From: a virus
Taxonomy: Duplodnaviria; Caudoviricetes
Strand: one strand, 5' to 3'
IMG/VR virus record: IMGVR_UViG_3300037313_002006
Coordinates: 1-25,458 of that record
Length of the DNA: 25,458 bases
Shown here: in pieces, positions 6,028 through 25,458 of the stretch
Numbering within the stretch: the stretch's first letter is position 1
How the letters are laid out: the number at the start of each line of letters is the position of its first letter
The notes under the pieces: generated by a model
Database searches by the model: none
Told to the model about the DNA's origin: nothing
What the model saw: only the letters and a program-made list of their open reading frames with translations
Made by a program: the position numbers and the translations under genes

Positions 6028-7112
6028 CGGTCCGCATTCTCACCGGCGACGCGCTGGAGCAGCTGCGCTCTCTCGACGACGACAGCGTCGACATGGTGTG
6101 CACCTCGCCGCCGTACTACGCTCTGCGCTCCTACCTGCCGGACGGCCACGCCGATAAGGCGCGAGAGATCGGGCTGGAGGAATCGCCGGCCGAGTTCGTC
6201 GAGCGCCTGGTCGCCGTCTTCCGAGAAGTCCGCCGGGTTCTGAAGCGCTCGGGCACGCTGTGGCTGAACCTGGGCGACAGCTACGCCGGATCCTGGGGTG
6301 CCCAGGGCAAGCGGGTCACGCCGGGCGAGATTTCGCGCAACTCCATCGTGAACCACCCAAAGCGGGGAAGGCAGACCGGCGCCATCCGTGAGGCAGGCCT
6401 CAAGCCGAAGGACATGATCGGCATTCCCTGGCGCGTGGCCTTTGCTCTTCAGGCCGACGGCTGGTGGCTGCGACAAGACATCATCTGGCACAAGCCGAAC
6501 CCGCTGCCCGAGAGCATCAGAGACCGATGCACCAAGGCGCACGAGTATGTCTTCCTGTTCTCGAAGGCTCGGCGCTACCACTTCGACGCTGATGCGATCA
6601 GCGAGCCGTGCAGTCCGGGCACCCACGCGCGGGTCGCTCAGAACGTTGCCGAGCAGATCGGGTCGAGCCGCACGCACGGCGGCCAAAAAACGATGAAGGC
6701 TGTGGTGAAGGCGCCGAAGACGGCGGCCAACGCGAAGGGGTCGCGGAACAACGAGAGCTTCAACAATGCGACTGCAGGGCTGGTGGTCGACCGGCGCAAC
6801 AAGCGGTCCGTCTGGACTATCGGTACGGAGCCATTCCCCGAGGCGCACTTCGCCACGTTCCCGCCGGCGCTAGTCGAGCCCTGCATTCTCGCCGGCTGCC
6901 CAAGTGGGGGTGTGGTGCTCGATCCGTTCGGCGGCGCCGGGACTACCGGCCTGGTCGCGTCGCGCCTGGGCCGCAGCGCCATCCTCATCGAGCTGAACCC
7001 GGAGTACGCGACCTTGGCTGACCGCCGCCTGCGCGCCGGACTCGCCCAGGTCGAGGGACCGCCGGCCGCTGCGCCCGACGGGCTGCCGCTCTTTGGCGGG
7101 GTCGCTGCATGA
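6024..7112 (+). CDS. Orphan DNA methyltransferase, N4-cytosine/N6-adenine, beta-class motif order
   Basis: ATG at 6024 is coupled. Catalytic TSPPYY precedes SAM-binding VLDPFGGAGTT; also IIWHK.NP.PES...RCTKAHEY and HFATFP. Confidence 0.92.
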   Translation: MTVRILTGDALEQLRSLDDDSVDMVCTSPPYYALRSYLPDGHADKAREIGLEESPAEFVERLVAVFREVRRVLKRSGTLWLNLGDSYAGSWGAQGKRVTPGEISRNSIVNHPKRGRQTGAIREAGLKPKDMIGIPWRVAFALQADGWWLRQDIIWHKPNPLPESIRDRCTKAHEYVFLFSKARRYHFDADAISEPCSPGTHARVAQNVAEQIGSSRTHGGQKTMKAVVKAPKTAANAKGSRNNESFNNATAGLVVDRRNKRSVWTIGTEPFPEAHFATFPPALVEPCILAGCPSGGVVLDPFGGAGTTGLVASRLGRSAILIELNPEYATLADRRLRAGLAQVEGPPAAAPDGLPLFGGVAA

Positions 7113-7288
7113 GGTGCGTGTTCACAGTCCCTCACGGCGCCGAGATCGAGTTCGGCATCAGCGGCGCGATTACGATCCGCCACCCAAGGTACGCCACGGT
7201 CCGCCTCCGCGCGAAGCTGCCCGGCGCCTTCAAGTGGCGACTGTCGGCGATCACGACCAAGGGCCAGACGCTGGAGCTGCGCCGATGA
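7109..7288 (+). CDS. Hypothetical 59-aa protein (not in ORF track)
   Basis: MRCVFTVPHGAEIEFGISGAITIRHPRYATVRLRAKLPGAFKWRLSAITTKGQTLELRR fills the gap exactly, with ATGA overlaps at both ends. Confidence 0.65.
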   Translation: MRCVFTVPHGAEIEFGISGAITIRHPRYATVRLRAKLPGAFKWRLSAITTKGQTLELRR

Positions 7289-7932
7289 TCGCGTACGCCA
7301 GCCGCACCGGGACGCGCCGAAACCTCGACGCCATGCGCGCGGTCAACACCGCTCTCGGATTCGATTTCTGGCGCCTCCTCGTCTCGCGCGCCGGCGTGTG
7401 GCGGACCGAGGGCTTCCGCTACTGCCTCGACAACGGCGCGTGGTCTGATTTCCAGGCTGGCGGCGCCTTCGACGATGAGGCCTTCGACGGTCTCCTGGAG
7501 CGGCTGGGGGGGGGCGCCGACTGGGTCGTGCTGCCCGACATAGTCGCCGGCGGCCGCACCTCGCTCGACTTGTCGCTGCGTTGGATGAACCGGGCCATGG
7601 CCATGTGTGACCTGGTCCTCATTGCTGTGCAGGACGGCATGGACCCTGCAGACCTCGCGCCGTACGTCGGCCCGCGGGTGGGCATCTTCCTCGGCGGCTC
7701 CACCGACTGGAAGCTGGCCCGGATGGCGCTTTGGGGTGCGGCCTGCGCCGACTGGGGCTGCTGGTACCACGTCGCGCGTGTGAACACGGCTCGCCGCTTC
7801 CGCATGGCGCATGACGCCGGCGCAACCTCCATCGACGGTTCCAGCGCGACGCGGTTCGCGAAGACCCTGCCGCTGCTGGAGGCCGCGCGCCGTCAGCCTT
7901 CGCTGCTCTCCCCGCGGAGGAGGGCGGCATGA
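7285..7932 (+). CDS. Minimal tRNA-guanine-transglycosylase-like (DpdA-like) TIM-barrel protein
   Basis: LDNGAW (TGT DSGG-like Asp), VLPDIV, AVQDG, FLGGS, YHVARVN and SIDGSS (second catalytic Asp position) occur in TGT order. Confidence 0.62.
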   Translation: MIAYASRTGTRRNLDAMRAVNTALGFDFWRLLVSRAGVWRTEGFRYCLDNGAWSDFQAGGAFDDEAFDGLLERLGGGADWVVLPDIVAGGRTSLDLSLRWMNRAMAMCDLVLIAVQDGMDPADLAPYVGPRVGIFLGGSTDWKLARMALWGAACADWGCWYHVARVNTARRFRMAHDAGATSIDGSSATRFAKTLPLLEAARRQPSLLSPRRRAA

Positions 7933-8627
7933 CAGCATCCGTCGCCGAGGCGCGCATCCGCGCCAAGACCGAACGCCAGATGCGGATGTACTGGCCCACC
8001 GGGCGCATCGTGCACGAGCTGCAGTGCGGCCAGGGCGAGCATCGCCTGGACCTGGCCTGCATCACCGAGGACCGCCTCGTCCTCGCCGAGATCAAGTCGG
8101 AGCGCGACGTGCTGAAGCGGGCGGAGAAGCAGCTCGGCAAGGCGCTGACCGTCGCCTCCGAGGTCTGGCTCGTGGTCGCCGAGGAGCACGTGGAGCCGGT
8201 GAAGACGGCGGGCCGGCACTGGCGCCGGCATGCCCAGCTGTGGGACGACGCCGAGGCGCGCGACGAGGGCCGGTTCTTCTACGGCGTGAAGCTGTGGACC
8301 GAGCCGAGCAAGGAGCCGTCGGGCTATCTCGTCTCGACGTTCAACGGGCGCGAAGGCGCATCGGGCCAGTTCGAGACGACACCCTCGCCCCACGCCCTGT
8401 TCGACCTGCTGTGGGCCGAGGAGATGCGGGCCGCTATCGGCGCCTTCTTCGGCGGCGCCACGCTCCCCGGCGCCGAGAAGGGCCTCAGCCGATGGCAGAT
8501 GACCCGGATCGCGGTGGAGCACATGAGCGGCCGCGAAATCCGCCGGGCGGTCTGCCGCGGCCTGCGCGCGCGCCAGTTCGCGAGAGCCGACGCGCCGATC
8601 CCGTGGGAGGTGGCCGATGCGGCGTAA
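7929..8627 (+). CDS. PD-(D/E)xK nuclease-fold protein (MmcB/sce7726-like)
   Basis: HEL...RLDLACI....LVLAEIKSERD.LKR..KQ motif. Confidence 0.65.
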   Translation: MTASVAEARIRAKTERQMRMYWPTGRIVHELQCGQGEHRLDLACITEDRLVLAEIKSERDVLKRAEKQLGKALTVASEVWLVVAEEHVEPVKTAGRHWRRHAQLWDDAEARDEGRFFYGVKLWTEPSKEPSGYLVSTFNGREGASGQFETTPSPHALFDLLWAEEMRAAIGAFFGGATLPGAEKGLSRWQMTRIAVEHMSGREIRRAVCRGLRARQFARADAPIPWEVADAA

Positions 8628-9027
8628 CTTCGGCGGTGACCCGTGCTGCGTCCCGAACTGCTACCGGAGAGCCAAGAAAGAAGTGCCGTTCTGCGAGCGG
8701 TGCTGGTCTTGCCTCACCGACGAGGAGCGCGCCGGCGTCCAGATCGCCACGCACGCGCCGTTCTATCGGGGCGTCATCTACCTCGACGCATCGGATATCG
8801 AGACGCTGCTCCCGTACACCGGCGGCAGGCCGGCGGTCGTGCCGACTGGGCTGTGGAGCTTCGGGGATGAAGGCCGCGACCGCGCCGCGGCCCGATACGG
8901 CGAGGCGTGGCTCGGCGACGTCCTGAGCGAGTTCGAGGCGCGCACCACCCGCGAAGCCGTGGCTCAGGCCGTCGCCCAGCGCCGCCGGGCCGGCAACGAG
9001 ATCATCACCGATGGAGAGGCGGCGTAG
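8617..9027 (+). CDS. Hypothetical protein with N-terminal Cys cluster
   Basis: GGAGG upstream; CCVPNC...FCERCWSCL. Confidence 0.6.
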   Translation: MRRNFGGDPCCVPNCYRRAKKEVPFCERCWSCLTDEERAGVQIATHAPFYRGVIYLDASDIETLLPYTGGRPAVVPTGLWSFGDEGRDRAAARYGEAWLGDVLSEFEARTTREAVAQAVAQRRRAGNEIITDGEAA

Positions 9028-9028
9028 C

Positions 9029-10597
9029 ATGAGAGCCCTCGTCCCGGCCCTGGACCTGCGCCCGCCCCCCGAAAACGCCGAGGTCGGGCGCCTGCCGGCG
9101 AACGTCGAGGCGGAGCAGGCCCTGCTTGGCGTCCTCCTCTACGACAACGCCGCCTACGAGCGCCTCGGCGACTACCTGAGGCCGCAGCACTTCTACGAGC
9201 CGTTCCATCAGCGCCTGTTCGAGAAGATCGAGGCCACGCTGCGCAAGGGCCAGTTGGCCGATCCCATCCTGATGATGGAGGCCTTCCCCAACGACCCGGG
9301 CTTCGAGGGGCTGGGCGGGGTACGCTACCTCGCCGACCTGATCGACCGGGCCCCGCCCATCTCCAACGCGCCCGACTACGCGCGCGAAGTCTACGACCTG
9401 GCCATCCGTCGCAACCTGATCACCATCTCGGCCGACATCGCCCGCGGCGCCCGGCTGAACGAGGACGACCTGAGCGGCCGTGAGCAGGTCGAAGCGGCTG
9501 AGTCGGCGCTCTATGGCCTGGTCGAGACCGGCGCGACGAGCGAGGGCCTGACGCCCTTCGCCGAGGCCCTGCGCGAAGCCGTCGAGATGGCCGCCGAGGC
9601 CCATCAACGGGACGGAGGCCTCGCCGGGCTCTCCACCGGCCTCCTGGATCTCGACCACAAGATCGGCGGCATGCACCGGTCGGACCTGATGATCCTCGCC
9701 GCGCGCCCCTCAATGGGGAAGACGTCGCTCGCCTGCAACATCGCTTTCGATGTCGCCCGCAGCTACGCCTGGGAGCCGCAGCCCGACGGGTCGCACAAGA
9801 CCATCCGCGGCGGGCGGGTGGCGTTCTTCTCCCTGGAGATGTCGCGCGCACAGCTCGCCATGCGCCTCCTGGCCGAAGCGAGCGGCATCAGCAGCGACCG
9901 CCTGCGCAAGGGCGAGCTGCGGCCTGACGAGTTCGGCAGGGTGCGCGACGCGGCCCTCGAGATCGAAGAGGCGCCGCTCTACATCGACGCCACGGGGGGC
10001 CTGACCCTCGCCAAGCTCTGTGCCCGGGCCCGCCGGATGAAACGCCGCCACGGCCTCGACCTCGTCATTGTCGACTACCTGCAGCTCGTCACGCTCGGGC
10101 TGACCGCCTCGCGTCCGGAGAACCGCGTCCAGGAGGTCTCGGCGATCACCGTGGGCCTGAAGGCGCTGGCCAAGGAACTGAACGTCCCGGTCTTGGCGCT
10201 CTCCCAGCTCAGCCGGCAGGTCGAGAACCGCGAGGACAAGAAGCCCCAGCTGGCGGACCTGCGGGAGTCGGGCTCGATCGAGCAGGACGCGGACATGGTC
10301 ATGTTCCTGTACCGCGAGGCCTACTACCTCAGCCGGCTCGAGCCGCGCGAGGACACGGCGGAGCACGCCAACTGGCGCGACAAGATGGATACGTGCCGCG
10401 GCCTGGCGGACCTCATCATCGGCAAGCAGCGCCATGGCCCCATCGGCACCGTGAAGCTGTCATTCAACGAGGCGCTGACCAAGTTCGGCAACCTGGCGCG
10501 AGACGGCTTCGGCGACCGGGGCGCCCGCGCCGCGCCGCTCTTCGACCCGAGCCAGCCGCGCTACAGCGCCGCGGAGGTTGAGGATGCTGGCGCATGA
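9029..10597 (+). CDS. dnaB: Replicative DNA helicase DnaB
   Basis: PANVEAEQALLG, Walker A ARPSMGKT, FSLEMS, Walker B IVDYLQL, LSQLSRQVE.REDKKPQLADLRESGSIEQDAD, KQRHGPIG. Confidence 0.97.
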   Translation: MRALVPALDLRPPPENAEVGRLPANVEAEQALLGVLLYDNAAYERLGDYLRPQHFYEPFHQRLFEKIEATLRKGQLADPILMMEAFPNDPGFEGLGGVRYLADLIDRAPPISNAPDYAREVYDLAIRRNLITISADIARGARLNEDDLSGREQVEAAESALYGLVETGATSEGLTPFAEALREAVEMAAEAHQRDGGLAGLSTGLLDLDHKIGGMHRSDLMILAARPSMGKTSLACNIAFDVARSYAWEPQPDGSHKTIRGGRVAFFSLEMSRAQLAMRLLAEASGISSDRLRKGELRPDEFGRVRDAALEIEEAPLYIDATGGLTLAKLCARARRMKRRHGLDLVIVDYLQLVTLGLTASRPENRVQEVSAITVGLKALAKELNVPVLALSQLSRQVENREDKKPQLADLRESGSIEQDADMVMFLYREAYYLSRLEPREDTAEHANWRDKMDTCRGLADLIIGKQRHGPIGTVKLSFNEALTKFGNLARDGFGDRGARAAPLFDPSQPRYSAAEVEDAGA

Positions 10598-10613: not shown

Positions 10614-11726
10614 GTGACTGCGCCGCTTACCCCGCCCGACTGCGACCTGACCGACTTCCAGCGGATGATGATCGACATCCCCCGGCTGCGCGGATCTGGA
10701 TTCGACGCGATCATGAACGACAGCGCCTGGCGCGCTGGCTTCAACCTGTGGCTCACCTCCTGGCACCAGGTCCCGGCAGCATCCCTGCCGGACAACGACG
10801 TCGAGCTGACCAAGGCGGCCGGCCTTGGCCGGGACATCCGGACGTGGCGCAAGGTGAAGGACGAGGCGCTGCGCGGCTGGACCCTTTGCGATGATGGCCG
10901 GCTCTACCATGAGACCGTCGCGGAGTTCGCGCTCGAGGCATGGTTGGAGAAGCTCGCCCAGCGCCTGTCGAGCGGCGCCGGCAACGCCAAGCGCTGGAAA
11001 GTCGAGTTCGATCCGCGCCCCATCGAGGCCGAGATCGATCGCACGGCCAGCCTCCTTACGGCGTTGAACCCGAAGTCGAAGGCGCTTGAGAAGCTGGAGC
11101 GGCGACGCGCGAAAAGCGCCTCCGACCCCGATGTCGGCGGGAATGCCGACGGGACAGAAAAGACATCCCGTCGGGACGCCCCAAATGTCCCGTCGGGATC
11201 GCAAGAGAAAGGGACAGGGAAAGGGAATCTAGAAGAACCCCCCATCCCCCCTGCCGGGGGGCAAGCGACCAGTGCGGCGTTCGAGAAGGCCTGGTCGCTG
11301 TGGCATGCCGACCGACCCGGAAACCGCGGCAAGGGGCCGGCCTGGGGCGAGTGGCCAGGGGCGGCGACCGACGCCGGCGGCGAGGACCGGCTGCTGGCCG
11401 TCGTCGGGGAGCACATGGCCCGGCTGGCGAAGGCGCCGCGGGAGACCGCCAAGGCATTCCACCGCTGGCTGCGCGACCGCGGCTTCGAGGCCTATCTGGC
11501 GACGGCTCCGGCCAAGACGGCGAGATGGCTCGGCCCGGCAGAGGTCTGGACGCTCGTCACCGCAGTGCGCAGCGAGGCCTACGCCCGCACCTGGCTCGCC
11601 GACTGCACCTGGACCGACATTCCCCGCGCCATCGTCGGCGGCCCGACCTGCATCGCCCGGCTGCGGGGCGACCTGGGCGCCGAGTTCGCCAACCGCGGAA
11701 TCCAGCTCTTGGAGCGCGCCGCATGA
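10614..11726 (+). CDS. DUF1376/YdaU-type phage replication initiator
   Basis: GTG at 10614 after GAGG (alternative ATG at 10584). PLTPPDCDLTDF, LWLTSWHQVPAASLPDND, GW..CDDGRLYH..VAE.ALEAW; low-complexity linker carries iterons. Confidence 0.8.
   Translation: MTAPLTPPDCDLTDFQRMMIDIPRLRGSGFDAIMNDSAWRAGFNLWLTSWHQVPAASLPDNDVELTKAAGLGRDIRTWRKVKDEALRGWTLCDDGRLYHETVAEFALEAWLEKLAQRLSSGAGNAKRWKVEFDPRPIEAEIDRTASLLTALNPKSKALEKLERRRAKSASDPDVGGNADGTEKTSRRDAPNVPSGSQEKGTGKGNLEEPPIPPAGGQATSAAFEKAWSLWHADRPGNRGKGPAWGEWPGAATDAGGEDRLLAVVGEHMARLAKAPRETAKAFHRWLRDRGFEAYLATAPAKTARWLGPAEVWTLVTAVRSEAYARTWLADCTWTDIPRAIVGGPTCIARLRGDLGAEFANRGIQLLERAA
11144..11237. other. Putative phage replication origin (iterons plus purine-rich tract) within the initiator gene
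   Basis: TCCCGTCGGGA at 11166 and 11188, and inverted near-copy TGCCGACGGGA at 11144, exactly 22 bp apart. Followed by GCAAGAGAAAGGGACAGGGAAAGGGAATCTAGAAGAA. Confidence 0.7.
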
Positions 11727-12931
11727 ACCTCGCCGCCCTCATCGAAAACCAGGTCTTCGCCGGCGTGGCGGGCGCCGCCATCGTCTCGGCCGCGCTCTTC
11801 CAGTTGCGCGCCGTGCCGCAGCACCTGCTGAACCTCGCCAAGTCGCAGTTCACCGCGACCCTGACGGTCTACTCGGAGCAGGAGGCGTTCCGGAAGATCG
11901 AGCTCTGGCTGGGCCAGCACCCATCGACCCAGTCGTCGCGGCGCCTTGCCCTGGTGGAGACGTGGGACCAGCTCGCCGCGGAGACGCAGCTGCAGTTGAC
12001 GGCCGGCGAAGGGCCGCACCTGCTGTGGGAAGCCGGCCGGCCCATCCTGGCGAACAAGTCGACGCCGGAGCCGGCCGGCGGCGGGAGCGGGTTCGGGCCG
12101 CGGCGCCAGACGATCACCCTGACCACGCTGGGCCGAGATCGCTCGCTGCTGGTGCGGATCCTGGCCGAGGCCAGGTCGGTCCAGGACCGCGACGTGGTGC
12201 CGGTGCATCTCTGGTCGGGCGGGGGCTATTCGCTGATCGAGCGCCGGCCGCGGCGGGCCCTCGAAACCGTGTACCTCGCCCCAGGCCTCCGCGAGCGCAT
12301 CGTCGCCGATGCTGAGCGCTTCGTGGCGCGGCGGGCCTGGTATGTCGAGCGGGGCATTCCGCACCGCCGCGGCTACCTGTTCGAGGGGCCGCCAGGCACG
12401 GGCAAGTCGACCATGGCCCTGGCCCTGGCCGGCGCGCTTCGCCGCCCGATCCACATCGTCAACCCGGCCACGGTCAGCGACGACAACGAGCTGCAGACCG
12501 CGATCAACCAGGCCGGTTCCGGCGTCGTGCTGATCGAGGACATCGACGCCGTGGACCGCAGCCAGAAGCGGGTGTCGACACCACTCGCCCGCTCCGTCTC
12601 GCCCGGCGCGGCTAGCGACACGGCCGACAAGACCCAGACCGGCATCACGACGTCCGGGCTGCTCAACGCCATTGACGGGGTCGCGGCGCGTGACGGCCGG
12701 ATCCTGATCATCACGTCCAACCACCCCGACCGGCTCGACCCGGCCCTGATCCGGCCCGGCCGTGTAGACCTGCGCTGCCACTTCGGCCCGGCCGGCGAGG
12801 GGGAGGTCGCCGCCATGTTCCGCCGGTTCTGGCCCGACGAAGACCCCGCCGGCTTCCTCGCCGAGGTGGGGCCCGAACTGCCGCTGACTCAGGCCGAGCT
12901 TCAGAATCGCCTCCTGGCCAGGGCGGCATGA
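11723..12931 (+). CDS. BCS1-family AAA+ ATPase (N-terminal TM helix, BCS1_N domain, AAA domain)
   Basis: ENQVFAGVAGAAIVSAALFQL; GEGPHLLW; TITLTTLGRDR..L..IL.EAR; RRALETVYL.PGL.ERIV.D..RF.....WY.ERGIPHRRGYLFEGPPGTGKS; VLIEDID; SGLLNAIDGV; TSNHPDRLDPALIRPGRVD. Confidence 0.88.
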   Translation: MNLAALIENQVFAGVAGAAIVSAALFQLRAVPQHLLNLAKSQFTATLTVYSEQEAFRKIELWLGQHPSTQSSRRLALVETWDQLAAETQLQLTAGEGPHLLWEAGRPILANKSTPEPAGGGSGFGPRRQTITLTTLGRDRSLLVRILAEARSVQDRDVVPVHLWSGGGYSLIERRPRRALETVYLAPGLRERIVADAERFVARRAWYVERGIPHRRGYLFEGPPGTGKSTMALALAGALRRPIHIVNPATVSDDNELQTAINQAGSGVVLIEDIDAVDRSQKRVSTPLARSVSPGAASDTADKTQTGITTSGLLNAIDGVAARDGRILIITSNHPDRLDPALIRPGRVDLRCHFGPAGEGEVAAMFRRFWPDEDPAGFLAEVGPELPLTQAELQNRLLARAA

Positions 12932-16604: not shown

Positions 16605-16757
16605 ATGATCCTGTTCGAACGCCGCCCCGGCTGCGTCCGCGTCGGCTGGCCCGCCTTCCTTGGCTACGCGCGCGCCGGCTCCATAGCGGTGCTCAACATC
16701 CTCGGGCTGCAGTTCGTCCGCGTTGGCGCCTGCTCGGCTATCATCCTCGGCTCATGA
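16605..16757 (+). CDS. Hypothetical 50-aa hydrophobic protein (not in ORF track)
   Basis: GAGAGG RBS; MILFERRPGCVRVGWPAFLGYARAGSIAVLNILGLQFVRVGACSAIILGS; ATGA-coupled to terS. Confidence 0.55.
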   Translation: MILFERRPGCVRVGWPAFLGYARAGSIAVLNILGLQFVRVGACSAIILGS

Positions 16758-17209
16758 GCGAGCCCCGTGGAGAAGGCGCGGGGAAGCGCCGGCCCAAGGA
16801 CGGCGATCTCGAACCGATCCTCGAACTGATCTGGGAAGGACGGAGCCTCCGCTCCGCCTGCGCAGAGCTCGGCCTTCACGTGCCGTCGACGAGCGATTGG
16901 CTCCATGAGGACGAGGGCCGCCGCGAACAGTACGGGCGCGCGCGCGAAGGTCGAGCAGAGTACCTTCAGGAGGACTCGTTGACCGTGAACCGGGCCGCAG
17001 CGCTGGGGATCATGGTCGGCGACAACTCGGTCGATGCTTCGGGGGCGAAGGGCTACCTGGAGGCGGTGAAGTTCGCCATCGGCCGCATGGCGCCGAAGAC
17101 CATCCCGCCGACCCGCATCGATCTGACGAGCCGGACGCGGCAGATGACCGACGAGGAGATCGCGGCAGAGATCGCGGCGCTGGAGGGCGCGGCTCCGGGC
17201 GGAGACTGA
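16754..17209 (+). CDS. terS: Terminase small subunit (Sf6-like)
   Basis: ILELIWEGRSLRSACAELG...DWL.ED...REQY.RARE..AE...K....RMAPK; directly upstream of terL. Confidence 0.85.
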   Translation: MSEPRGEGAGKRRPKDGDLEPILELIWEGRSLRSACAELGLHVPSTSDWLHEDEGRREQYGRAREGRAEYLQEDSLTVNRAAALGIMVGDNSVDASGAKGYLEAVKFAIGRMAPKTIPPTRIDLTSRTRQMTDEEIAAEIAALEGAAPGGD

Positions 17210-17215
17210 CCTCCC

Positions 17216-18802
17216 GTGAATGCGATGGTGCGCCTGGCCAATGGCCGGCAGCTGCCCCGCGACCGGGCAGAGGCTTACCTCGAGCTTCTGCGCGAGCAGC
17301 ATCGCCGGCGCGAGGCGAAGCGGCTGGAGACCGAGCGCGAGGCGATCCTCGCCAAGTGCGCCACGCTCCACGGCTTCATAGAGGAATTCTGGTACGTCCT
17401 CGAGCCAGCGGTGCCGTTCGTCACCGGCTGGGCGATCCGCGCCATGTGCGACCACCTGGAGGCGGTCCACAACGGCTGGATCCAGAACCTTCTGATCACG
17501 GTCCCGCCCGGCACGATGAAGTCGCTGCTGGTCTCGGTCTTCTTCCAGGCGTGGGAGTGGGGACCGAAGGGCCGACCCGACCTGCGCTACCTCGCCACTT
17601 CGTTCTCCGAGGAGAACGTGACGCGGGACTCGAACAAGGTCCGCAAGCTCCTGGAGAGCGAAAAGTACCGCGCCCTATGGGGCGACGAGGTCAAACCGGG
17701 CCAGCGCTGGGGCGTCTACAACTTCGAGAACACCAAGGGTGGCAACCGCGACTGCCGCCCCTTCGGCTCACTAACCGGCGGCCGCGGCGACCGGGTGCTG
17801 ATCGACGACCCGCACTCGGTGAAGATGGCGGAGAGCGATACCCAGCGCGCCGAGACCGTGAAGCAGTACCGCGAAGGCGCCACCGACCGCCTGAACGACA
17901 TCACCAAGTCGGCCACCATCGTCATCATGCAGCGGCTGCACCGCAAGGACGTGGCGGGCGAGATCATCGACCTCGACGTCGGCTTCGTGCACCTGAACCT
18001 GCCGATGGAGTTCGAGCCCAAGCGGCGCTGCGTGACGGTGCTGCGGCCGGCCAACGATGGCAACCCGGCCATCCTGTTCCAGGATCCGCGGCAGGCCGAC
18101 GGCGAGCTGCTCTTCCCAGAGCGATTCCCGGCCGCCGAGGTGGCGCGGCTCAAGAAGCTCAAGGGCTCGTACGCCTGGGCGGGCCAGTACCAGCAGCGCC
18201 CCGCCCCGCGCGACGGCGGCATGTTCAAGCGCTCCGACTTTGCGCCGATCCGCGCCCTGCCGGCGGGGGCCAGGTTCTGCCGGGGCTGGGACTTCGCCGC
18301 GACCGAAGGCGCAGGCGACTTCACCGCCGGCGTGAAAATCGCGGCGGTGCCGGACGGCCGCTACGTCATCGTCAACGTGGTGCGCGGCCAGTGGGGACCG
18401 GGCAACGTGGCCAAGAACCTGCTGCAGACCACCGCGCTGGACGGGGTCGACTGCCGCGTCCGCATCCCCCAGGACCCGGCCGCCGCCGGCAAGACCGACG
18501 CTCAGGCCAAGATCAAGCTGCTGTCCGGCTACAGCGTCCGCGCCAAGCCGGTGAGCGGCGACAAGGAGCAGCGGGCCGACCCGTTCGCGACGCAAGTCGA
18601 GGCCGGGAACGTCTGGATCCTGGTCACGGGCGAGGCGGCAAGGGATGCGTGGATCGAGCCGTTCCTCGAGGAGATCGAGGAGTTCCCCGGCTCCGCCCAC
18701 GACGACCAGGTCGATGCGGTGGCCGACGCCTTCAACGAGCTCGCCCTGGGTCCCGGGCCCGCCACAGCCCTCTTCGGGCGCTACGTAGGGAGGACGAGCT
18801 GA
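17216..18802 (+). CDS. terL: Terminase large subunit
   Basis: Walker A VPPGTMKS, TGGRGD, Walker B VLIDDPH, IMQRLH, YQQRP, nuclease GWDFA...DFTA...HDDQVDA. Confidence 0.95.
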   Translation: MNAMVRLANGRQLPRDRAEAYLELLREQHRRREAKRLETEREAILAKCATLHGFIEEFWYVLEPAVPFVTGWAIRAMCDHLEAVHNGWIQNLLITVPPGTMKSLLVSVFFQAWEWGPKGRPDLRYLATSFSEENVTRDSNKVRKLLESEKYRALWGDEVKPGQRWGVYNFENTKGGNRDCRPFGSLTGGRGDRVLIDDPHSVKMAESDTQRAETVKQYREGATDRLNDITKSATIVIMQRLHRKDVAGEIIDLDVGFVHLNLPMEFEPKRRCVTVLRPANDGNPAILFQDPRQADGELLFPERFPAAEVARLKKLKGSYAWAGQYQQRPAPRDGGMFKRSDFAPIRALPAGARFCRGWDFAATEGAGDFTAGVKIAAVPDGRYVIVNVVRGQWGPGNVAKNLLQTTALDGVDCRVRIPQDPAAAGKTDAQAKIKLLSGYSVRAKPVSGDKEQRADPFATQVEAGNVWILVTGEAARDAWIEPFLEEIEEFPGSAHDDQVDAVADAFNELALGPGPATALFGRYVGRTS

Positions 18803-20397
18803 TGGCCACGGCCGCGACCGCCAGCCCGGACACCCCCAGCGCCGACTACGAGGCGATGCGGCCCTACTGGACCCTCGTCGACAACCTCCTGGGCGGCGCG
18901 GAGGCGATGCGCGCCGCGGGCTGGACCCCGACGTGGCGCGCCGCCACGACGACGAGCGCCAGCTCCAGCGCCAAGCGGGTCGCGGTGGGCGAGAACCCCT
19001 ACCTGCCGCGCTTCCCCGAGGAGGAGGTGACCGACTACCGCTATCGTGTCGCCAACGCGCCCTTCACGAACATCTTCGGCGACATCCTGGCCAACCTGGC
19101 GGCCAAGCCCTTCGCCGAGGAGGTCCAGCTCCAGGACGGCGCCCCGGACCAGTTCTCGGTCCTGGTCGACGACATCGACGGCCGCGGCAACAACCTGCAC
19201 AAGTTCGCCGGCGAGACCTTCTACGCCGGGGCCGGCTACGCCATCGACTGGATCTTCGTCGAGTACTCCAAGGCGCGGCCCCGGACCGATGGCGCGCCGC
19301 TCACCCAGGCCGACGAGCGGGCGCAGGGTCTGCGGCCCTACTGGGTCCACATCGCCGCCACCGACATGCTCGCGGTCTATTCCGAGAAGGTGCGCGGCAA
19401 GGAGATCTTCACCCACGCCCGGTGGCGCGAGTGCGTCACGCGCCGCAGCGGCTTCGCCGAAGTGACGATGGAGCGGATCCGGGTGCTGGACCGTGAGCCC
19501 ATCCTCGACGACTTCGGCCGGGTCATCGACTACCGGCCCGCCACCTTCACCGTCTACGAGCGCCAGGCGAAGACCGGCAGGGTGGGCCGCTCCAGCGGAA
19601 CGCAATGGGCCGTGGTCGACGAAGGCGACATCACCATCGGCGAGATCGCCCTCGTCCCCTTCATCACGGGCAAGCGCCAGGGCTCGTCGTGGCGCTTCGT
19701 GCCGGTGCTGCGCGACGCGGCGCACACCCAGGTGGAGCACTTCCAGGCCGAGGCGGGGCTGAAGTCGATCAAGGAGTTGACCGCCTTCCCCATGCTCGCC
19801 GGCAACGGGGTGCAGCCGGCGCTCGAGAACGGCGTGCCGGTTCCGGTGCCGATCGGGCCGCGCGCCGTGGTCTACGCCCCGCCGACCGGCGCCGACAACG
19901 GCAGCCACGGCGAGTGGACGTTCCTCGAGCCGACGGCGGAGAGCCTGAGGTTCCTGTCGTCCGAGGTGGACCGGATCGAGAAGCAGCTGCGCGAGCTCGG
20001 CCGCCAGCCGCTCACCGCCCAGACCGGCAACCTCACCGTCGTCACCACCGCCTTCGCCGCGCAGAAAGGCAACTCCGCCGTCCAGCAGTGGGCGCTGAAC
20101 CTCAAGGACGCGCTGGAGCAGGCGCTGAAGCTCACGGCGAAGTGGCTGAACGTCGCGGTCGAGCCCGAGGTGCGGGTCTTCACCGATTTCGCCCTCGAGA
20201 TCGGCGACGACAAGGGCCCGCCGACGCTCACCGAGGCGCGCAAGAACGGCGACCTGTCGCGGCGCACGTACTGGAGCGAGCTGCAGCGGCGCAACATCCT
20301 GTCGGCCGACTTCGACGCCGACGCCGAGGAAGCGGCGCTCATCGAGGAGGCGCCGGACGAGGACGACGCCCAAGACATCGAGGACGCTGCCGCCTGA
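18802..20397 (+). CDS. Portal protein (DUF4055-type)
   Basis: ATG 18802 overlaps the terL stop. LLGGAEAMRAAG..YLPRFPEE...Y..R, DDIDGRGNNL, RPYWVH, acidic C-terminus; position after terL. Confidence 0.88.
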   Translation: MATAATASPDTPSADYEAMRPYWTLVDNLLGGAEAMRAAGWTPTWRAATTTSASSSAKRVAVGENPYLPRFPEEEVTDYRYRVANAPFTNIFGDILANLAAKPFAEEVQLQDGAPDQFSVLVDDIDGRGNNLHKFAGETFYAGAGYAIDWIFVEYSKARPRTDGAPLTQADERAQGLRPYWVHIAATDMLAVYSEKVRGKEIFTHARWRECVTRRSGFAEVTMERIRVLDREPILDDFGRVIDYRPATFTVYERQAKTGRVGRSSGTQWAVVDEGDITIGEIALVPFITGKRQGSSWRFVPVLRDAAHTQVEHFQAEAGLKSIKELTAFPMLAGNGVQPALENGVPVPVPIGPRAVVYAPPTGADNGSHGEWTFLEPTAESLRFLSSEVDRIEKQLRELGRQPLTAQTGNLTVVTTAFAAQKGNSAVQQWALNLKDALEQALKLTAKWLNVAVEPEVRVFTDFALEIGDDKGPPTLTEARKNGDLSRRTYWSELQRRNILSADFDADAEEAALIEEAPDEDDAQDIEDAAA

Positions 20398-20987
20398 TGC
20401 CGAAGCCCGCGAAGGCCAAGCCGGCGCGCAAGGCCGTCCCGGTGTTCTTCGTGGAGGCCACCGGCGAGGGCGTGGTCTGGAACACCTACAGCTGCGGCTG
20501 CGGCCGACGCGCCAAGGTCCGCGTGGGACGGTTCGCGGAGGCGGATCGCCCTGAGGGGCACTGGGGAACCGTCATTCCCTGCCCCGACTGCGGCGGGATC
20601 GCGCGCATGTCGTCGCAGGCCTGGGACACGATCTGGCGTCACTCCGGCGGCGCCGAGATCAACCCCGACGGCGGCAACCTGCCCGCAGGCGCGTGCTACG
20701 CCATGGCGCCGGACCGCATGTGGCGCGCCGGCCCAGATGGCCGCGAGCTCGTCGTGGTGCTGCCGGATGGCGTCCACTGGCACATCGACAGCCGCGCCTC
20801 GAACTGCAAGCTGCCGGATCACGAGGCGCACTACTGCTGGGCCAGGACGGGCCGGCCCGAGGACGGGACGCTCGACGTCCGCAAGGGCGATCCGCGCGAC
20901 GCCGGCGGCGGCTCGATCCGGACGGGGCGTTATCACGGCCACCTCAGGAACGGCCAGCTGGTCCCCTGCGGCGACAGCCAGACCTGA
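20397..20987 (+). CDS. Cys/His-rich metal-binding protein, C-terminus DUF6527-like
   Basis: CGCG...CPDCG ribbon, then WHIDSRASNC...HYCW.RTG...GSI....YHGHLRNG.L. Confidence 0.6.
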   Translation: MPKPAKAKPARKAVPVFFVEATGEGVVWNTYSCGCGRRAKVRVGRFAEADRPEGHWGTVIPCPDCGGIARMSSQAWDTIWRHSGGAEINPDGGNLPAGACYAMAPDRMWRAGPDGRELVVVLPDGVHWHIDSRASNCKLPDHEAHYCWARTGRPEDGTLDVRKGDPRDAGGGSIRTGRYHGHLRNGQLVPCGDSQT

Positions 20988-21009
20988 TCATTTTGCCGAG
21001 GTCGGGAAC

Positions 21010-21576
21010 ATGACCACCGCCCTCGTCCTGGGCGGCGCGGACTGCGTCTGGAGGGACGTCGAAGCGGCGCTGGCTCTCGGGGAGTATCAGGCCGTCGTCA
21101 CGTGCAACGATGTCACCGCGCTCTGGCCCGGCCCGATCGATGCGGCGGTATCGCTGCACGCGGAGACGTGGCCCGTATGGCTGCAGCAGCGCGCCCGCAA
21201 CGGCTTCCCCGCGCCGGCCCAGGTGGTCGGCCATGACGCCTTCAAGAAAAGCTCGACGCGCCGCGGCGGCGAGGGGGTCACGACCTGGTCGCCCCAGATG
21301 CTGCCGGGCGAGACGGAATCGGGATCCTCCGGCCTGTTCGCCGCCAAGTTCGCCCTGGTCGACCTGGGCCACGACCGCGCCGTGCTGTGCGGCGTGCCCA
21401 TGACGGCCGAGGCGCGCCACTTCTTCGACAAGCGCTCCTGGGGCGGCGCCGCGGGCCACCGGCGCGGCTGGCGCCAGGCCGAGGCCGCGATCCAGGGGCG
21501 GCTCAAGTCAATGTCGGGTTGGACCAAGGCGCTCCTCGGAGCCCCCAGCCCCGAATGGATCGCCGGCGGCAGCTGA
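21010..21576 (+). CDS. Maf/DUF115-like (sialyltransferase-like Rossmann) putative glycosyltransferase
   Basis: ALVLGGA, VVTCND, SLH, GSSGLFAAKFALVDLGHDRAVLCGVPM, HFF follow the Maf/CstII-like motif order. Confidence 0.6.
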   Translation: MTTALVLGGADCVWRDVEAALALGEYQAVVTCNDVTALWPGPIDAAVSLHAETWPVWLQQRARNGFPAPAQVVGHDAFKKSSTRRGGEGVTTWSPQMLPGETESGSSGLFAAKFALVDLGHDRAVLCGVPMTAEARHFFDKRSWGGAAGHRRGWRQAEAAIQGRLKSMSGWTKALLGAPSPEWIAGGS

Positions 21577-21619
21577 CGGTCACGAGTTCCGGCCATCCGG
21601 CCGGTAGCCGTGCGGGGTA

Positions 21620-21685
21620 GGGCGAGACGCCCGCCGCCGGCCCAGCGCGAGGCGTGACGCCTCACAGAGCGGGGCGAGACGCCCC
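21620..21685 (+). repeat. Three GGCG(A/T)GACGCC palindromic hairpin repeats upstream of the scaffold gene
   Basis: GGGCG-AGA-CGCCC at 21620-21632, GAGGCG-TGA-CGCCTC at 21649-21663, GGGGCG-AGA-CGCCCC at 21671-21685. Confidence 0.85.
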
Positions 21686-21697
21686 AGAAGGTCCGAC

Positions 21698-22516
21698 ATG
21701 AAGCTGAAGACCATCACCGTCCAGGTGGACGGCAAGGAAGTGACCGTGGCCGCCCTCGATGACAAGGGCCTGCCGATCTACGTCCACGACGACGGCAAGG
21801 AGTTCGGCCACGACGCGCCGGCCGCCAACGCCCGCATCGCGGCGCTGAATGCCGAGAGCGCCGAGCGGCGCACCAAGCTGACCGAGGCCGAGGCCAAGCT
21901 GAAGGGCTTCGAGGGCATCGAGGACGCCGAGGCGGCGAAGAAGGCCCTGGAAACCCTGGCCAACATCGACGCGGGCAAGCTGCTCGAGGCCGGCAAGGTC
22001 GAGGAGATCAAGAAGGCGGCGCGGGACGCCGCCGAGGCCCAGATGGCGGACGCGGCGAAGAAGTCGCAGACGCGCATCGCCGAGCTGGAAGGCCAGGTCA
22101 CGGGGCTGAACGCGACGCTCGACAACGAGGTGATCGGCGGCTCGTTCGGGCGGTCCAAGTTCATCGCGGAAAAGTCGGCCATTCCCGCCGACTTCGTGCA
22201 GGCCCGCTTCGGGACCGCCTTCAAGCGCGAGGAAGGCAAGATCGTCGGGTACTACCCCAGCGGCGAGAAGATCTTCTCGCGCTCGAAGATGGGCGAGCTG
22301 GCCGACTTCGACGAGGCGATCGAGCTGCTGATCGATCAACACCCGGACAAGGCGAACATCCTGAAGGGCGACGGCCACTCGGGCGGCGGCGCCGACCACG
22401 GCGACAAGAGCAAGCCGGGCTTCGGCCAACCCGGCAAAGGCAACATGGGCGGGTCACGGGAAGAGCGCGTCGCGGCGATCAAGTCCCGTATCCCTGCGAA
22501 TTTGGGCCAGGCCTAG
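21698..22516 (+). CDS. Capsid scaffolding protein (DUF6651-like)
   Basis: MKLK...GLPIYVHDDGKE...I..LNAES..RR, long coiled coil, FG.AFK.EEGKIV.Y, GELADFDEAIE.L...P.K..ILKG...SGGG; directly before the capsid gene. Confidence 0.85.
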   Translation: MKLKTITVQVDGKEVTVAALDDKGLPIYVHDDGKEFGHDAPAANARIAALNAESAERRTKLTEAEAKLKGFEGIEDAEAAKKALETLANIDAGKLLEAGKVEEIKKAARDAAEAQMADAAKKSQTRIAELEGQVTGLNATLDNEVIGGSFGRSKFIAEKSAIPADFVQARFGTAFKREEGKIVGYYPSGEKIFSRSKMGELADFDEAIELLIDQHPDKANILKGDGHSGGGADHGDKSKPGFGQPGKGNMGGSREERVAAIKSRIPANLGQA

Positions 22517-22612
22517 GCCACCCAAAGCTGGGTTCTCGAACGAGATCCAGCGTCCCGGCGGCGCGTCACGCCGGGCTCCTAGAGAACCCCAAGCAACCCA
22601 AGGAGTAAGACC

Positions 22613-23605
22613 ATGGGCCTCGACCTGATGCATGTCTTCAACGACTACGTGATGCCCGCCACCATCGAAACGCTGGACCAGATGGTGGACAAGTTCAACG
22701 AAGCCTCGGGCGGCGCGATCCGCCTGACCACGGCTGGCTACGACGGCGACTTCTTCCATGAGTCGTTCTACGCCGGCCTGCACTCGGCGCGCCGCCGCGT
22801 CGACCGCTACGGCTCCAACAGCGCCGTGGCGACCACCGACCTCAGCCAGAACAAGGAAACGCGGGTGAAGATCGCCGGCGGCTTCGGCCCCGTGCTGTTC
22901 GAGCCCTCGCAGCTCACCTGGCTGGAAAAGAGCCCGGCCGAGGCCATCGAGGTGATCTCGCGCAACTTCGCCGAGGCGCTCCTGGCCGACCAGCTCAACA
23001 CCGGCATCATGGCGGCGGTTGCGGCGATCGAGAACAACACCGACGCCGTCTACGACGCCTCGACGGCGGTGAGCCCGCCCGGCGGCATCAACTACAAGAC
23101 CATCAACAAGAGCCACGCCAAGTTCGGCGACCACTCCGGCACCATCGTGGCCGAGGTGATGACCGGCGGCCTGATGCACAAGCTCATCGGGCAGAACCTG
23201 TCGAACGCCGAACGGCTCTTCGTCGCGCAGAACGTCCGCGTCATCGACATCCTCGGCCGCATCGTGGTCGTGACCGATGCGCCGGCGCTCTACGAGGACA
23301 ACTCCCCCGGCAACGACATGGAGAAGGTCCTCGGCCTCACCGACTCCGGCGTCGTGATCTCCGATGGCGGTGACGTGATCACCAACATCGATACGAAGAA
23401 CGGCAAGGAGCGGATCGAGACCACCTTCCAGGCCGACTACAGCTTCACGCTGGGCCTGAAGGGCTACGCCTGGGACACCACCTCGGGCGGCAAGTCTCCC
23501 ACCGACGCCGAGCTTGCCACCGGTTCCAACTGGGACCAGGTCGCGACCTCCGTGAAACACACGGCAGGCGTGCTCGCGATCGGCGACGCCACCGTCGACG
23601 AATAG
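22613..23605 (+). CDS. Major capsid protein
   Basis: AAGGAG RBS, 330 aa, FNEASGGAI.L, LGLKGYAWD..SGGKSPTDAELATGSNW...TAGV; position after scaffold. Confidence 0.9.
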   Translation: MGLDLMHVFNDYVMPATIETLDQMVDKFNEASGGAIRLTTAGYDGDFFHESFYAGLHSARRRVDRYGSNSAVATTDLSQNKETRVKIAGGFGPVLFEPSQLTWLEKSPAEAIEVISRNFAEALLADQLNTGIMAAVAAIENNTDAVYDASTAVSPPGGINYKTINKSHAKFGDHSGTIVAEVMTGGLMHKLIGQNLSNAERLFVAQNVRVIDILGRIVVVTDAPALYEDNSPGNDMEKVLGLTDSGVVISDGGDVITNIDTKNGKERIETTFQADYSFTLGLKGYAWDTTSGGKSPTDAELATGSNWDQVATSVKHTAGVLAIGDATVDE

Positions 23606-23625
23606 TCGCCGACGGAAACCACTGC

Positions 23626-23657
23626 GGGCCGGGGCGCGCCACACGCCGCCCCGGCTC
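23626..23657 (+). terminator. Strong GC hairpin after the capsid gene (attenuator or mRNA-stabilising stem; weak U-tract)
   Basis: GGGCCGGGGCG (23626-23636) pairs with CGCCCCGGCTC (23647-23657); followed only by CACTTC. Confidence 0.45.
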
Positions 23658-23676
23658 CACTTCAAGGAACTGCTGA

Positions 23677-24324
23677 ATGTCTCGACCGATCGAGCTTGTC
23701 TACTCGACCCAGCGGAACGGCTTCGTAGAGGGCCGCGCCTACGCCAACCCGCGCTTCTACTCCACGCCGCGGTCGAACATCAGCAAGGTCTACCTCGTGG
23801 GCCAGTCGTGCCCCAACGGCCAGAAGATCCGCGCCGACTACGAGGCGCAGGGCGTGAAGGTCGAGGTCGTGGACGCCGCTGGCGTCACCATGGCCGCCGC
23901 GCCGAAGCGCCAGGCCGCCGCCGCCGCGCCGGCCCACTTCACTGGCCTGCCCGAGGACACCCGCGGCAGCGTCTTCATCCCGGAGGCCTGGGAAGACCTT
24001 CCCTGGACGCCGAAGCCGGACGAGGACCTGTCGCTGCGCGCCCTGGCGGCGATGGTCAGCGACACCCCGATCATCAACAAGGCCCAGGCCAAGGCCGCCA
24101 TCATCGCCGAGCTGGAGCGCCGCAAGGCGACAGCGGACGTGCCTGGATCGGACGAGACGCGGCCGGACGGGGCTGATGCCGGCGACCAGGCGTCCGGCGC
24201 CACGACTGACAGCGAGACCCTCCCGCCGGTGGCGGACGCCGAAGGCCCGACCGAGGCCGAAGGCGCGCCCGCCGAGGGCGACGCCGCCGGCAACGCCGAG
24301 GGCGAGACGGGCGACCAGGCTTAG
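23677..24324 (+). CDS. Post-capsid head-associated protein with HeH/LEM-like segment and acidic disordered tail
   Basis: AAGGA RBS; YANPRFY N-domain; WEDLPW...LRALA.......NKAQA.AAI..ELERR; Asp/Glu/Ala/Pro tail. Confidence 0.7.
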   Translation: MSRPIELVYSTQRNGFVEGRAYANPRFYSTPRSNISKVYLVGQSCPNGQKIRADYEAQGVKVEVVDAAGVTMAAAPKRQAAAAAPAHFTGLPEDTRGSVFIPEAWEDLPWTPKPDEDLSLRALAAMVSDTPIINKAQAKAAIIAELERRKATADVPGSDETRPDGADAGDQASGATTDSETLPPVADAEGPTEAEGAPAEGDAAGNAEGETGDQA

Positions 24325-24335
24325 TCCCAGTCGAG

Positions 24336-25458
24336 ATGCAGAGCCGCCCCGAGATCCTCGGCGAGACCGAGACGCTGGCCATCGCCGCGTCCGGCCGCTC
24401 CCTCGCCCGCGTCGGCGAAGGCGAGCTGAAGCTGGCGATCTCGGGGCGGAACCTGAAGAGCCAGGTGTTCCACCCCCGGCTCGCCGCCGAGATCAAGGCG
24501 GTGCTGACGCAGCCCGGCCCGGCGCTGGCCTGCCTGCCGCGCAACCACAAGGGCATGCCCAACGAGCCCTTCTGGCGCGCGTTCGAGGCGCCAAAGTTCG
24601 CGAAGTACTACAGCCAGCCGCAGTACGGCTCGGCCTTCGTCAGCCGGCCCGACATGGTCAACGCCATCGACCGGCCCGACTACTGGGCCATGGTCCGCAG
24701 CCTGTGGCGCGACCGCGACGTGGTCCTGGCCAGCCACGGCCTGAAGGCGCTTCCCATGCCCGAAGCGGCGTCGGTGCGCCTGGTGAAATGCGCCCCTGTC
24801 GGGGCCTATCGGGACATCGACACCATCGCCGAGGAGATCGGCAAGCCCGCCGGGCCGGTCTTCCTGGCTCTGGGCGCCACCGCCACGGTCCTGGCGGCGC
24901 GCCTCGCCAGGCGCGGCGTCTGGGCGCTCGACGTGGGCCACCTGGGTCACTTCCTGCCGCACGAGGGGCAATACGCCGTGGATCGCGACGACCTGATCTC
25001 GCCCGGCTACGTCGAGCAGAACCGCCAGCTGCACGCCCGGCCCGAGGGCTACGGCGGCTCGGGCAAGAAGTCGGCCCAGACCGTCATGGACTTCGCGGCG
25101 GAGGTGAAGCCGGACTGGATCCTCGACTACGGCTGCGGCCAGGGGACGCTGAAGACGGCGATGGTCGCGGCCGGCTACCGCGGCTCGATCCACGAGTACG
25201 ACCCCGCCATCAAGGGCAAGGCCCTGCTGCCGAAGCCGGCCGACCTGGTGGTGTCCACCGATGTGCTGGAGCACATCGAGCCGGAGAAGCTCGGCGCCGT
25301 GGTCGACCACATCTTCGGCCTGGCCAAGAAGGCGGTGTTCCTGCTGATCGCGACCCGGGCGGCGAATAAAGTGCTGCCGGATAAGCGGAACGCACATTTG
25401 ATCGTAAAACCGGCGGAGTGGTGGGAAGAAGCTGTAAGCAATCGCGGCTTCACCGTAG
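24336..25458 (+). CDS. GT-D-fold (DUF1792-like) glycosyltransferase fused to class I SAM methyltransferase; 3'-truncated by window edge, not in ORF track
   Basis: Open from ATG 24336 to the end. N-domain: ETL....GRSLARVGEGE, YGSAFVSRP, LWRDRDVV, LALGATATVLAARL...ALDVGH. C-domain: ILDYGCGQG, YDPA, DLVVSTDVLEHIEP, RNAHLIV...WW. Confidence 0.82.
   Translation, partial: MQSRPEILGETETLAIAASGRSLARVGEGELKLAISGRNLKSQVFHPRLAAEIKAVLTQPGPALACLPRNHKGMPNEPFWRAFEAPKFAKYYSQPQYGSAFVSRPDMVNAIDRPDYWAMVRSLWRDRDVVLASHGLKALPMPEAASVRLVKCAPVGAYRDIDTIAEEIGKPAGPVFLALGATATVLAARLARRGVWALDVGHLGHFLPHEGQYAVDRDDLISPGYVEQNRQLHARPEGYGGSGKKSAQTVMDFAAEVKPDWILDYGCGQGTLKTAMVAAGYRGSIHEYDPAIKGKALLPKPADLVVSTDVLEHIEPEKLGAVVDHIFGLAKKAVFLLIATRAANKVLPDKRNAHLIVKPAEWWEEAVSNRGFTV

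Follow-up and report, generated by a model that had tools for sequence, protein, structure and literature searches.

The window analysed here is an entire virus record of 25,458 bp (IMGVR_UViG_3300037313_002006), whose right third is filled by a head operon (Table 1). Two genes with sugar-transferase folds lie among its structural genes: MAF1, which encodes a 188-residue protein with its own ribosome-binding site (RBS) and ATG, and a fusion of a GT-D glycosyltransferase (GT) domain to a class I S-adenosylmethionine (SAM) methyltransferase. By means of these two genes, the phage probably O-glycosylates proteins of its own virion late in infection. An earlier note had reported two GT-type genes among the structural genes, and gene order, Pfam matches and fold matches confirm them. 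The fusion lies two genes after the capsid gene, as claimed, with the small protein f16 intervening; MAF1 does lie between portal and scaffold, but shares that interval with a 196-residue gene on the portal side. The assignment of both genes to the late operon also held: they are co-oriented, and a pattern scan found no plus-strand terminator pattern from 14400 to the window end. GC content at third codon positions (GC3) was 0.92 for MAF1 and 0.93 for the fusion gene, within the neighbours' range of 0.92-0.97, indicating that neither gene is a recent foreign insert.

MAF1 gave no match in Pfam, PHROG or PDB sequences, with either the protein or its profile, and its putative assignment as a GT comes from structure alone. 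The AF2 model (pLDDT 96.7) retrieved CstII first in Foldseek (E 5e-4), with Maf 5mu5 at E 4e-3. VIA Z scores were 12.5 for CstII, 12.1 for CstI, 10.7 for Maf, 10.6 for SteA and 10.1 for HPPK; CstII and CstI rank first over 172-180 aligned residues (CstII, root-mean-square deviation 3.4 over 172), and the match to Maf 5mu5 (3.9 over 174) covers only residues 272-514 of its 632. ESM Atlas placed viral clusters at the top, followed by WaaZ, MptE-like and GT29 structures at TM 0.67-0.71. MAF1 shares the single-Rossmann catalytic fold of CstII/CstI (GT42) and Maf 5mu5 and keeps the N-terminal Gly motif and the Asn, Ser-Gly and G-x-x motifs, but differs from them in its small size, its identity of 11-13% and the lack of the flanking domains of Maf proteins, which have about 500-650 residues. 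N33, H50, S107, G128, P130 and H137 are invariant in 120/120 MAF1 homologues, and H150 is His in 98 of them and Tyr in 14; in CstII the catalytic base is the His H188. None of the 120 alignment members matched the MptE/Maf family PF01973 in Pfam at E values up to 1. By sequence and architecture, MAF1 stands outside the Maf and GT42 families: the previous label of Maf/DUF115-like survives for the fold and fails for the family, given the missing PF01973 match, the missing flanking domains and the ranking of CstII and CstI above Maf. Tying both folds to protein acceptors was likewise too strong a claim, because the glycan-acting CstII and CstI rank above Maf and the non-transferases HPPK and SteA follow close behind.

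A sister family, MAF3 (phrog_4603, including PmgO of phage P1), is linked to MAF1 by profile (96%) at a profile identity of 16%. MAF3 has a weak match to PF01973 (E 0.002), and its profile weakly matches CstII (E 0.09). Transferases of the CstII/Maf fold use CMP-ulosonic acids (CMP, cytidine monophosphate), which suggests the donor class of MAF1, not the specific sugar. CMP-Kdo (Kdo, 3-deoxy-D-manno-octulosonic acid) is present in Gram-negative hosts generally. As a donor it is no less likely than the flagellin pool of pseudaminic or legionaminic acid that had been proposed: nothing points to that pool, the sister family is present in P1 (Escherichia coli) and D3, and CMP-Kdo fits this range as well.

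The GT-D domain of the fusion is secure by sequence and fold. It matches PF08759 (E 5e-16, 59.5 bits against a cut-off of 27) and, by sequence, PDB entry 5v4a (E 1e-18), and its model (pLDDT 96.8) matched 4pfx in Foldseek (E 2e-12). Sequence and fold agree with the streptococcal DUF1792/GT-D protein GalT1 (4pfx, 4phr, 5v4a) over residues 17-204, with the R-x-G-[DE]-G-E, S/T-R-P and D-x-G-H motifs kept; unlike in DUF1792, the aligned part stops at residue 204 and is followed by a methyltransferase, in a phage context. DUF1792 reportedly extends an existing sugar on Fap1, which would make the window's domain a chain-extending rather than a protein-initiating enzyme. The methyltransferase domain matches PF13489 above cut-off (E 4e-8), and D264, G266, G268 and D289 (motif I D-x-G-x-G and the acidic motif II) are invariant in 118 homologues of the fusion. 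The window's copy ends 18 residues short, and an identical full-length protein of 392 residues is encoded on an 83.5 kb contig.

What is new here is a link, seen in capsid sequences, between MAF1 and Ser-Pro in two variable capsid loops, which names candidate acceptor residues. Ser-Pro was first noticed on aligning capsids from 21 enzyme-bearing loci; a test set was then gathered by capsid similarity alone, yielding 79 non-redundant rows, two of which were dropped as very divergent. The remaining 77 comprised 23 MAF1-positive rows, 29 negative rows (21 with long flanks and 8 isolates) and 25 uncounted rows, of which 14 had short flanks (1 with Ser-Pro) and 11 carried other glycan genes (2 with Ser-Pro). 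Loop 1 or loop 2 contained Ser-Pro in 22/23 MAF1-positive and 3/29 negative capsids (uncorrected Fisher p 2e-10). Taken separately, the counts were 14/23 against 0/29 for loop 1 and 21/23 against 3/29 for loop 2; negative capsids mostly show Gly-Thr-Pro or Asp-Pro in these loops. A whole-record search in which two positive controls matched detected MAF1 in none of the 21 viral negatives. Within a well-supported clade of 10 rows, all five MAF1-positive rows and none of the five negative ones have Ser-Pro, and on a quick tree built without the loops each trait changes at least 10 times. The tail tubes of relatives gave a parallel count, the window's own tail tube lying outside the contig: Ser occurs in the last six residues in 16/19 MAF1-positive and 3/11 negative cases. 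We regard the Ser-Pro co-occurrence as a strong lead from sequence comparison, not as proof.

Several points weigh against virion glycosylation. The motif was seen first in loci selected for MAF1; six MAF1-positive rows were selected by capsid, three of them on reused contigs, and the three new ones (L287, L289 and L294) all have Ser-Pro. Only four independent pairs lie on strong branches, with 2-3 concordant and none opposed (p 0.25). Hosts of MAF1-positive loci are Alphaproteobacteria in 11 of 12 cases and the eight negative isolates are named after Gammaproteobacteria, so that host lineage could drive the motif. Individual exceptions also occur: L323 carries MAF1 but lacks Ser-Pro, in L288 and L309 Ser-Pro is present and no enzyme was detected, and the L272-type group, with a different Maf-looking gene, has Thr-Gly loops instead. 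That the loops face outward is presumed from general knowledge of the HK97 fold. As for the enzymes, HPPK/TPK and SteA have the fold of MAF1 too (Z about 10), and the Asp of the CstII-like G-x-D motif is replaced by Pro in MAF1. In the window's GT-D, ExE (E28-G-E30) stands where DUF1792 and 86/118 homologues have DxE and 32/118 have E; the domain is a family member with an altered metal-binding motif. Finally, the glycan, the activity and the expression are all predicted from sequence and models.

Table 1. Features of the head operon in the window, with positions in the 25,458-bp stretch.
Feature	Position	Strand	Basis or remark
TerS	16754-17209	+	gene calls, Pfam, PHROG
TerL	17225-18802	+	gene calls, Pfam, PHROG
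Portal protein	18802-20397	+	phrog_145 E 6e-93; start from gene caller
Cys/His-rich 196-residue protein	20397-20987	+	start overlaps portal stop; no Pfam or PHROG match
MAF1, predicted CMP-ulosonic-acid (Kdo or nonulosonate) transferase, single-Rossmann CstII/Maf fold	21010-21576	+	structure models
Head scaffolding protein	21698-22516	+	phrog_206 E 2.5e-17, DUF6651
Gp13-like major capsid protein, candidate glycan acceptor	22613-23605	+	PF20036 E 6e-124; nearest solved capsid 8xb6
Capsid Ser154-Pro155, variable loop 1, predicted O-glycosylation site	23072-23077	+	Ser-Pro co-occurrence with MAF1
Capsid Ser231-Pro232, variable loop 2, predicted O-glycosylation site	23303-23308	+	Ser-Pro co-occurrence with MAF1
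f16, small post-capsid protein, HeH/LEM-like lead	23677-24324	+	phrog_2101; candidate tether or acceptor
GT-D (residues 1-205) + class I SAM methyltransferase (residues about 215-392) fusion	24336-25458	+	PF08759, PF13489; cut by contig end

Two modular glycan cassettes sit among the head and neck genes of unrelated phages. Loci were fetched with both proteins, their genes were called and clustered, and 84 cluster representatives were named with Pfam and PHROGs; cassette labels are profiles built on these same loci, which families unknown to the profiles escape. Homologues, mostly viral, numbered 460 for MAF1 and at least 463 for the fusion (best 8000 candidates scored). The type I cassette, in SPP1-like siphophages, consists of an acetyltransferase or FkbM methyltransferase, a GT8-like gene and MAF1. 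Type II, mostly in HK97-like phages, carries MAF3, the GT-D + methyltransferase fusion, a methyltransferase (f17), MAF3, GT2 and GT8-like genes between the capsid and adaptor genes. The window combines MAF1 in its commonest slot with the start of a type II cassette. From 109 MAF1 copies (81 at 90% identity), 35 were dropped for flanks shorter than 3 kb and 46 counted: 35/46 are flanked on both sides within 6 kb by same-strand structural genes, 20 lie between portal and scaffold, and 13 are without a separate glycan gene within 6 kb, one of these being a GT fusion. For the GT-D + methyltransferase fusion (60 copies, 53 distinct, 25 dropped, 28 counted), 23/28 are flanked by structural genes on both sides and 0/28 are without other glycan genes. 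Among 50,697 phage records MAF1 occurs only in Paracoccus phage Pkon1, against 444 records with this capsid family, indicating that MAF1 is accessory. A MAF3 profile search of 25 records, run without a positive control, gave no match.

Other gene arrangements were seen in these loci. Directly after the capsid gene of L302, one of the three MAF1-negative loci with Ser-Pro, lie a Capsule_synth-like putative GT (weak, E 0.003) and a methyltransferase (11177-12501). L272 (10991-12237) and its relatives L269, L273-L276 and L280 carry, immediately after the capsid gene, a methyltransferase and a third Maf-looking family, recognised by eye and without a Pfam match. In the podophage-like loci L149-L169, genes for a tetratricopeptide-repeat (TPR) protein, a methyltransferase, a GT8-like protein and a radical SAM protein between capsid and adaptor form a third cassette type. 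L264 (8835-13388; CcrColossus gp126-131, from the cultivable Caulobacter jumbo phages) has MAF3, GT8-like, methyltransferase and GT9-like genes between the tail and lysis genes.

Several types of fusion join MAF1 to small post-capsid domains: f16-MAF1 in L067, MAF1-HeH-like in L050, L051 and L054-61, and GT8-like-MAF1-tail in L039 and L049; p38 of Pkon1 is a MAF1 fusion as well. The reading frame of MAF3 is -1 to an overlapping post-capsid open reading frame (ORF) in 21/21 distinct loci (L093-L122, L146; HK97-like phages). In 19/21 of them, a slippery heptamer of the form X XXY YYZ, in most cases GGGAAAA or CCCAAAA, lies in frame 54-135 nt before the first motif; control genes contain 23 heptamers in 90,520 nt (0.25 per kb), and a distant alternative start codon is present in 5/21 loci. 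A programmed -1 frameshift is therefore predicted from sequence to fuse the post-capsid protein to the Maf-like MAF3. For the window itself, a frameshift from f16 into GT-D was rejected: the -1 frame is open for 126 nt only, with no strict slippery site. The HeH/LEM-like assignment of f16 is a weak ESM Atlas lead.

From the folds, gene positions, fusions and Ser-Pro co-occurrence we infer a set of catalytic steps and a tethering. MAF1 would draw a CMP-activated ulosonic acid from the pool of the host and transfer it to Ser or to a first sugar; that MAF1 often stands alone suggests action without a phage-made glycan. GT-D would add a sugar from a nucleoside diphosphate (NDP)-sugar to the growing chain, which the fused methyltransferase would O-methylate or cap. 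Predicted acceptors are the capsid Ser-Pro loops (S154 and S231) and Ser-rich tail-tube ends, and the post-capsid protein may bring the enzyme to the prohead or be an acceptor itself. Judging from L095 and L120, further cassette genes (the methyltransferase f17, a second Maf-like MAF3, GT2 and GT8-like) probably lie beyond the contig end. Possible benefits are shielding, stability and reduced non-productive adsorption; the cassette is probably dispensable in the laboratory, as are P1 pmgO/P/Q. The decoration of virion proteins proposed in the earlier note is thus partly supported, by placement among structural genes, fusions, Ser-Pro loops and the scarcity of DNA-hydroxylating enzymes; the single shared glycan envisaged there is a weaker part of it, the two modules being separable. 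In a wider and more speculative reading, which we put forward tentatively, Gram-negative tailed phages may widely run their own protein O-glycosylation: a minimal CstII/Maf-fold enzyme, brought to the prohead through fusion or a programmed -1 frameshift with the post-capsid protein, would place an ulosonic acid (possibly Kdo) on a co-evolving Ser-Pro sequon in capsid loops, and swappable cassettes (GT-D, GT2, GT8-like, acetyl- and methyltransferases) would diversify the coat like O-antigen.

It is unlikely that the enzymes instead remodel a host surface glycan, such as the core of lipopolysaccharide (LPS), exopolysaccharide (EPS) or a glycosylated flagellum or pilus, in the lytic or lysogenic state, blocking competitors or the re-adsorption of virions to debris. 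This explanation does not predict the link with capsid Ser-Pro, and the co-orientation of the genes within late structural operons, with no terminator pattern detected, speaks against it, as do the fusions and frameshifts that tie the post-capsid protein to the enzymes. An annotated C1 operator upstream of P1 pmgN-O-P-ppp-Q counts against lysogenic expression in particular. In its favour, CstII and WaaZ, the closest in fold, work on lipooligosaccharide (LOS) or LPS, the GT8-like, GT2, GT9-like and acetyl-/methyltransferase partners are typical of surface polysaccharide synthesis, many carriers are proviruses, and P1 pmgO, P and Q are non-essential in the available text of the source.

The two modules could also be independent, with MAF1 modifying a virion protein and the GT-D + methyltransferase fusion making another product (for another acceptor, or a glycan that is free or lipid-linked), or with the roles exchanged. 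A shared locus is rare (only L120 and the window among the loci examined), the acetyltransferase and GT8-like partners usual for MAF1 are missing beside the window's copy, and the Ser-Pro test bears on MAF1 only. We consider independence quite unlikely all the same: L095, with a GT-D cassette after f16 as in the window, has Ser-Pro in both loops, six MAF1/GT-D + methyltransferase protein pairs come from equally long contigs, and the type II cassette brings Maf-like genes of its own, linked to the post-capsid ORF.

Glycosylation of phage DNA near packaging as an anti-restriction measure, with the cassette recruited by a HeH-type post-capsid protein, is very unlikely. HeH/LEM domains can bind nucleic acid, and the window, which represents 25 of about 83 kb of its own genome, carries a Mom-like gene, a DNA methylase and a PAPS reductase. 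Tet_JBP was found in 0/48 cassette-bearing records, in a search without a positive control, and thymidylate-synthase homologues in 3/48; the known systems, in the text available, require a base hydroxylated by TET-like or thymidylate-synthase-like enzymes (PMC13326640). Some phage GT clusters are able to attach Kdo and heptose to 5-hydroxymethylcytosine; the DNA GTs described in the accessible part of that source have GT-A or GT-B folds (bioRxiv 2023.12.21.572611). Finally, it is scarcely plausible that MAF1 is a pyrophosphokinase-like or non-catalytic nucleotide-binding morphogenesis factor, maybe a virion component: HPPK, TPK and SteA at Z 8.5-10.6, the lack of a sequence match to any GT family and the 'structural protein' annotation of the sister-family member PAJU2 ORF010 are set against the top rank of CstII/CstI along the aligned length, the profile link through MAF3 to CstII, and the constant GT company of MAF1, including direct GT8-like+MAF1 fusions.

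In the literature found, in so far as its text was available, phage virion glycosylation is documented for mycobacteriophages only. The accessible text describes glycosylation of capsid and tail tube with tandem GTs and an O-methyltransferase (PMC11600133, PMC12619734). The likeness to Che8 and cluster O phages is that phage-encoded GTs (joined in cluster O by an O-methyltransferase) modify both the capsid and the tail tube (PMC11256854, PMC12619734, PMC11600133, PMC10877033). Glycans are reported there at the C-termini of capsid and tail tube, whereas the sites predicted in the window are internal Ser-Pro capsid loops, and the GTs of the F1 phage Maravista, in the text available, are located close to the 3' end of the genome and outside the head genes. 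The window's system, known from sequence alone, differs further in its alphaproteobacterial host, its CstII/Maf-fold and GT-D enzymes and its putative post-capsid tether. Chlorovirus PBCV-1 A064R is likewise a viral GT-methyltransferase fusion, and in the accessible text it extends and O-methylates a capsid glycan (PMC9614988); it belongs to a eukaryotic giant virus, acts on an N-glycan and has other GT folds, which makes the likeness a functional analogy only. P1 PmgO/PmgQ, D3 orf7 and PAJU2 ORF010, like the window's enzymes, adjoin GTs in morphogenesis regions, but as members of MAF3 they belong to a different family from MAF1. PAJU2 ORF010 (L265, 7780-8349) carries the same 'structural protein' annotation as the capsid gene of its record. 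Our literature search returned no account of phages of Gram-negative hosts that glycosylate their virions with GT-D or Maf-fold enzymes; the survey and supplements of Freeman et al. 2023 may list such genes.

Hundreds of phage contigs, representing several morphotypes, carry the cassettes, so that capsid glycosylation may be widespread among phages of Gram-negative hosts in soil and water. Through the Ser-Pro link particular residues become testable, and Pkon1 (MK291442), an isolate that can be induced and that combines a lone MAF1 fusion (p38, encoded directly after the capsid gene) with Ser-Pro in capsid loop 2, offers a ready test system; the part of the Pkon1 paper available makes no mention of p38 or virion proteomics. 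If virion glycosylation is true, P1 pmgO/Q would gain a function and very small protein-acting ulosonate transferases would exist.

The phage host is probably a Caulobacteraceae-like bacterium, judging from a GcrA gene in the window (Pfam) and from the hosts of MAF1 relatives: 11/12 genome loci are alphaproteobacterial, in agreement with the earlier view of an alphaproteobacterial phage, and the best two are from Phenylobacterium. The 196-residue protein beside MAF1 is a possible zinc binder. It has only three homologues besides itself, none in viral contigs, and was rejected as a regular cassette member on account of this rarity; one of the three sits on a contig equally long as that of a MAF1 homologue. 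MAF1 is in the frame of the portal gene, whose TGA is followed by 612 stop-free nt (20398-21009) beneath the 196-residue gene, the longest run of its kind in the window (next, 164 codons; estimated chance 0.006). Portal read-through into MAF1 appears unlikely: the shadow frame looks non-coding, another frame holds a real gene and MAF1 has its own RBS. The stop-free run is probably due to chance.

Elsewhere in the window, consecutive PAPS-reductase-like, Mom-like and N6/N4 DNA methylase genes (4325-7112) may form a separate DNA-modification module. A LexA-like repressor, the GcrA homologue and a 699-residue GP88/DUF7227 protein are encoded at 303-3309, and a BCS1-type AAA ATPase (BCS1_N + AAA, phrog_7485) lies amid replication genes at 11723-12931. 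In L051 (approx. 5000-9900), the genes for terminase, portal and scaffold run opposite to the capsid gene, reflecting either an inversion or a misassembly.

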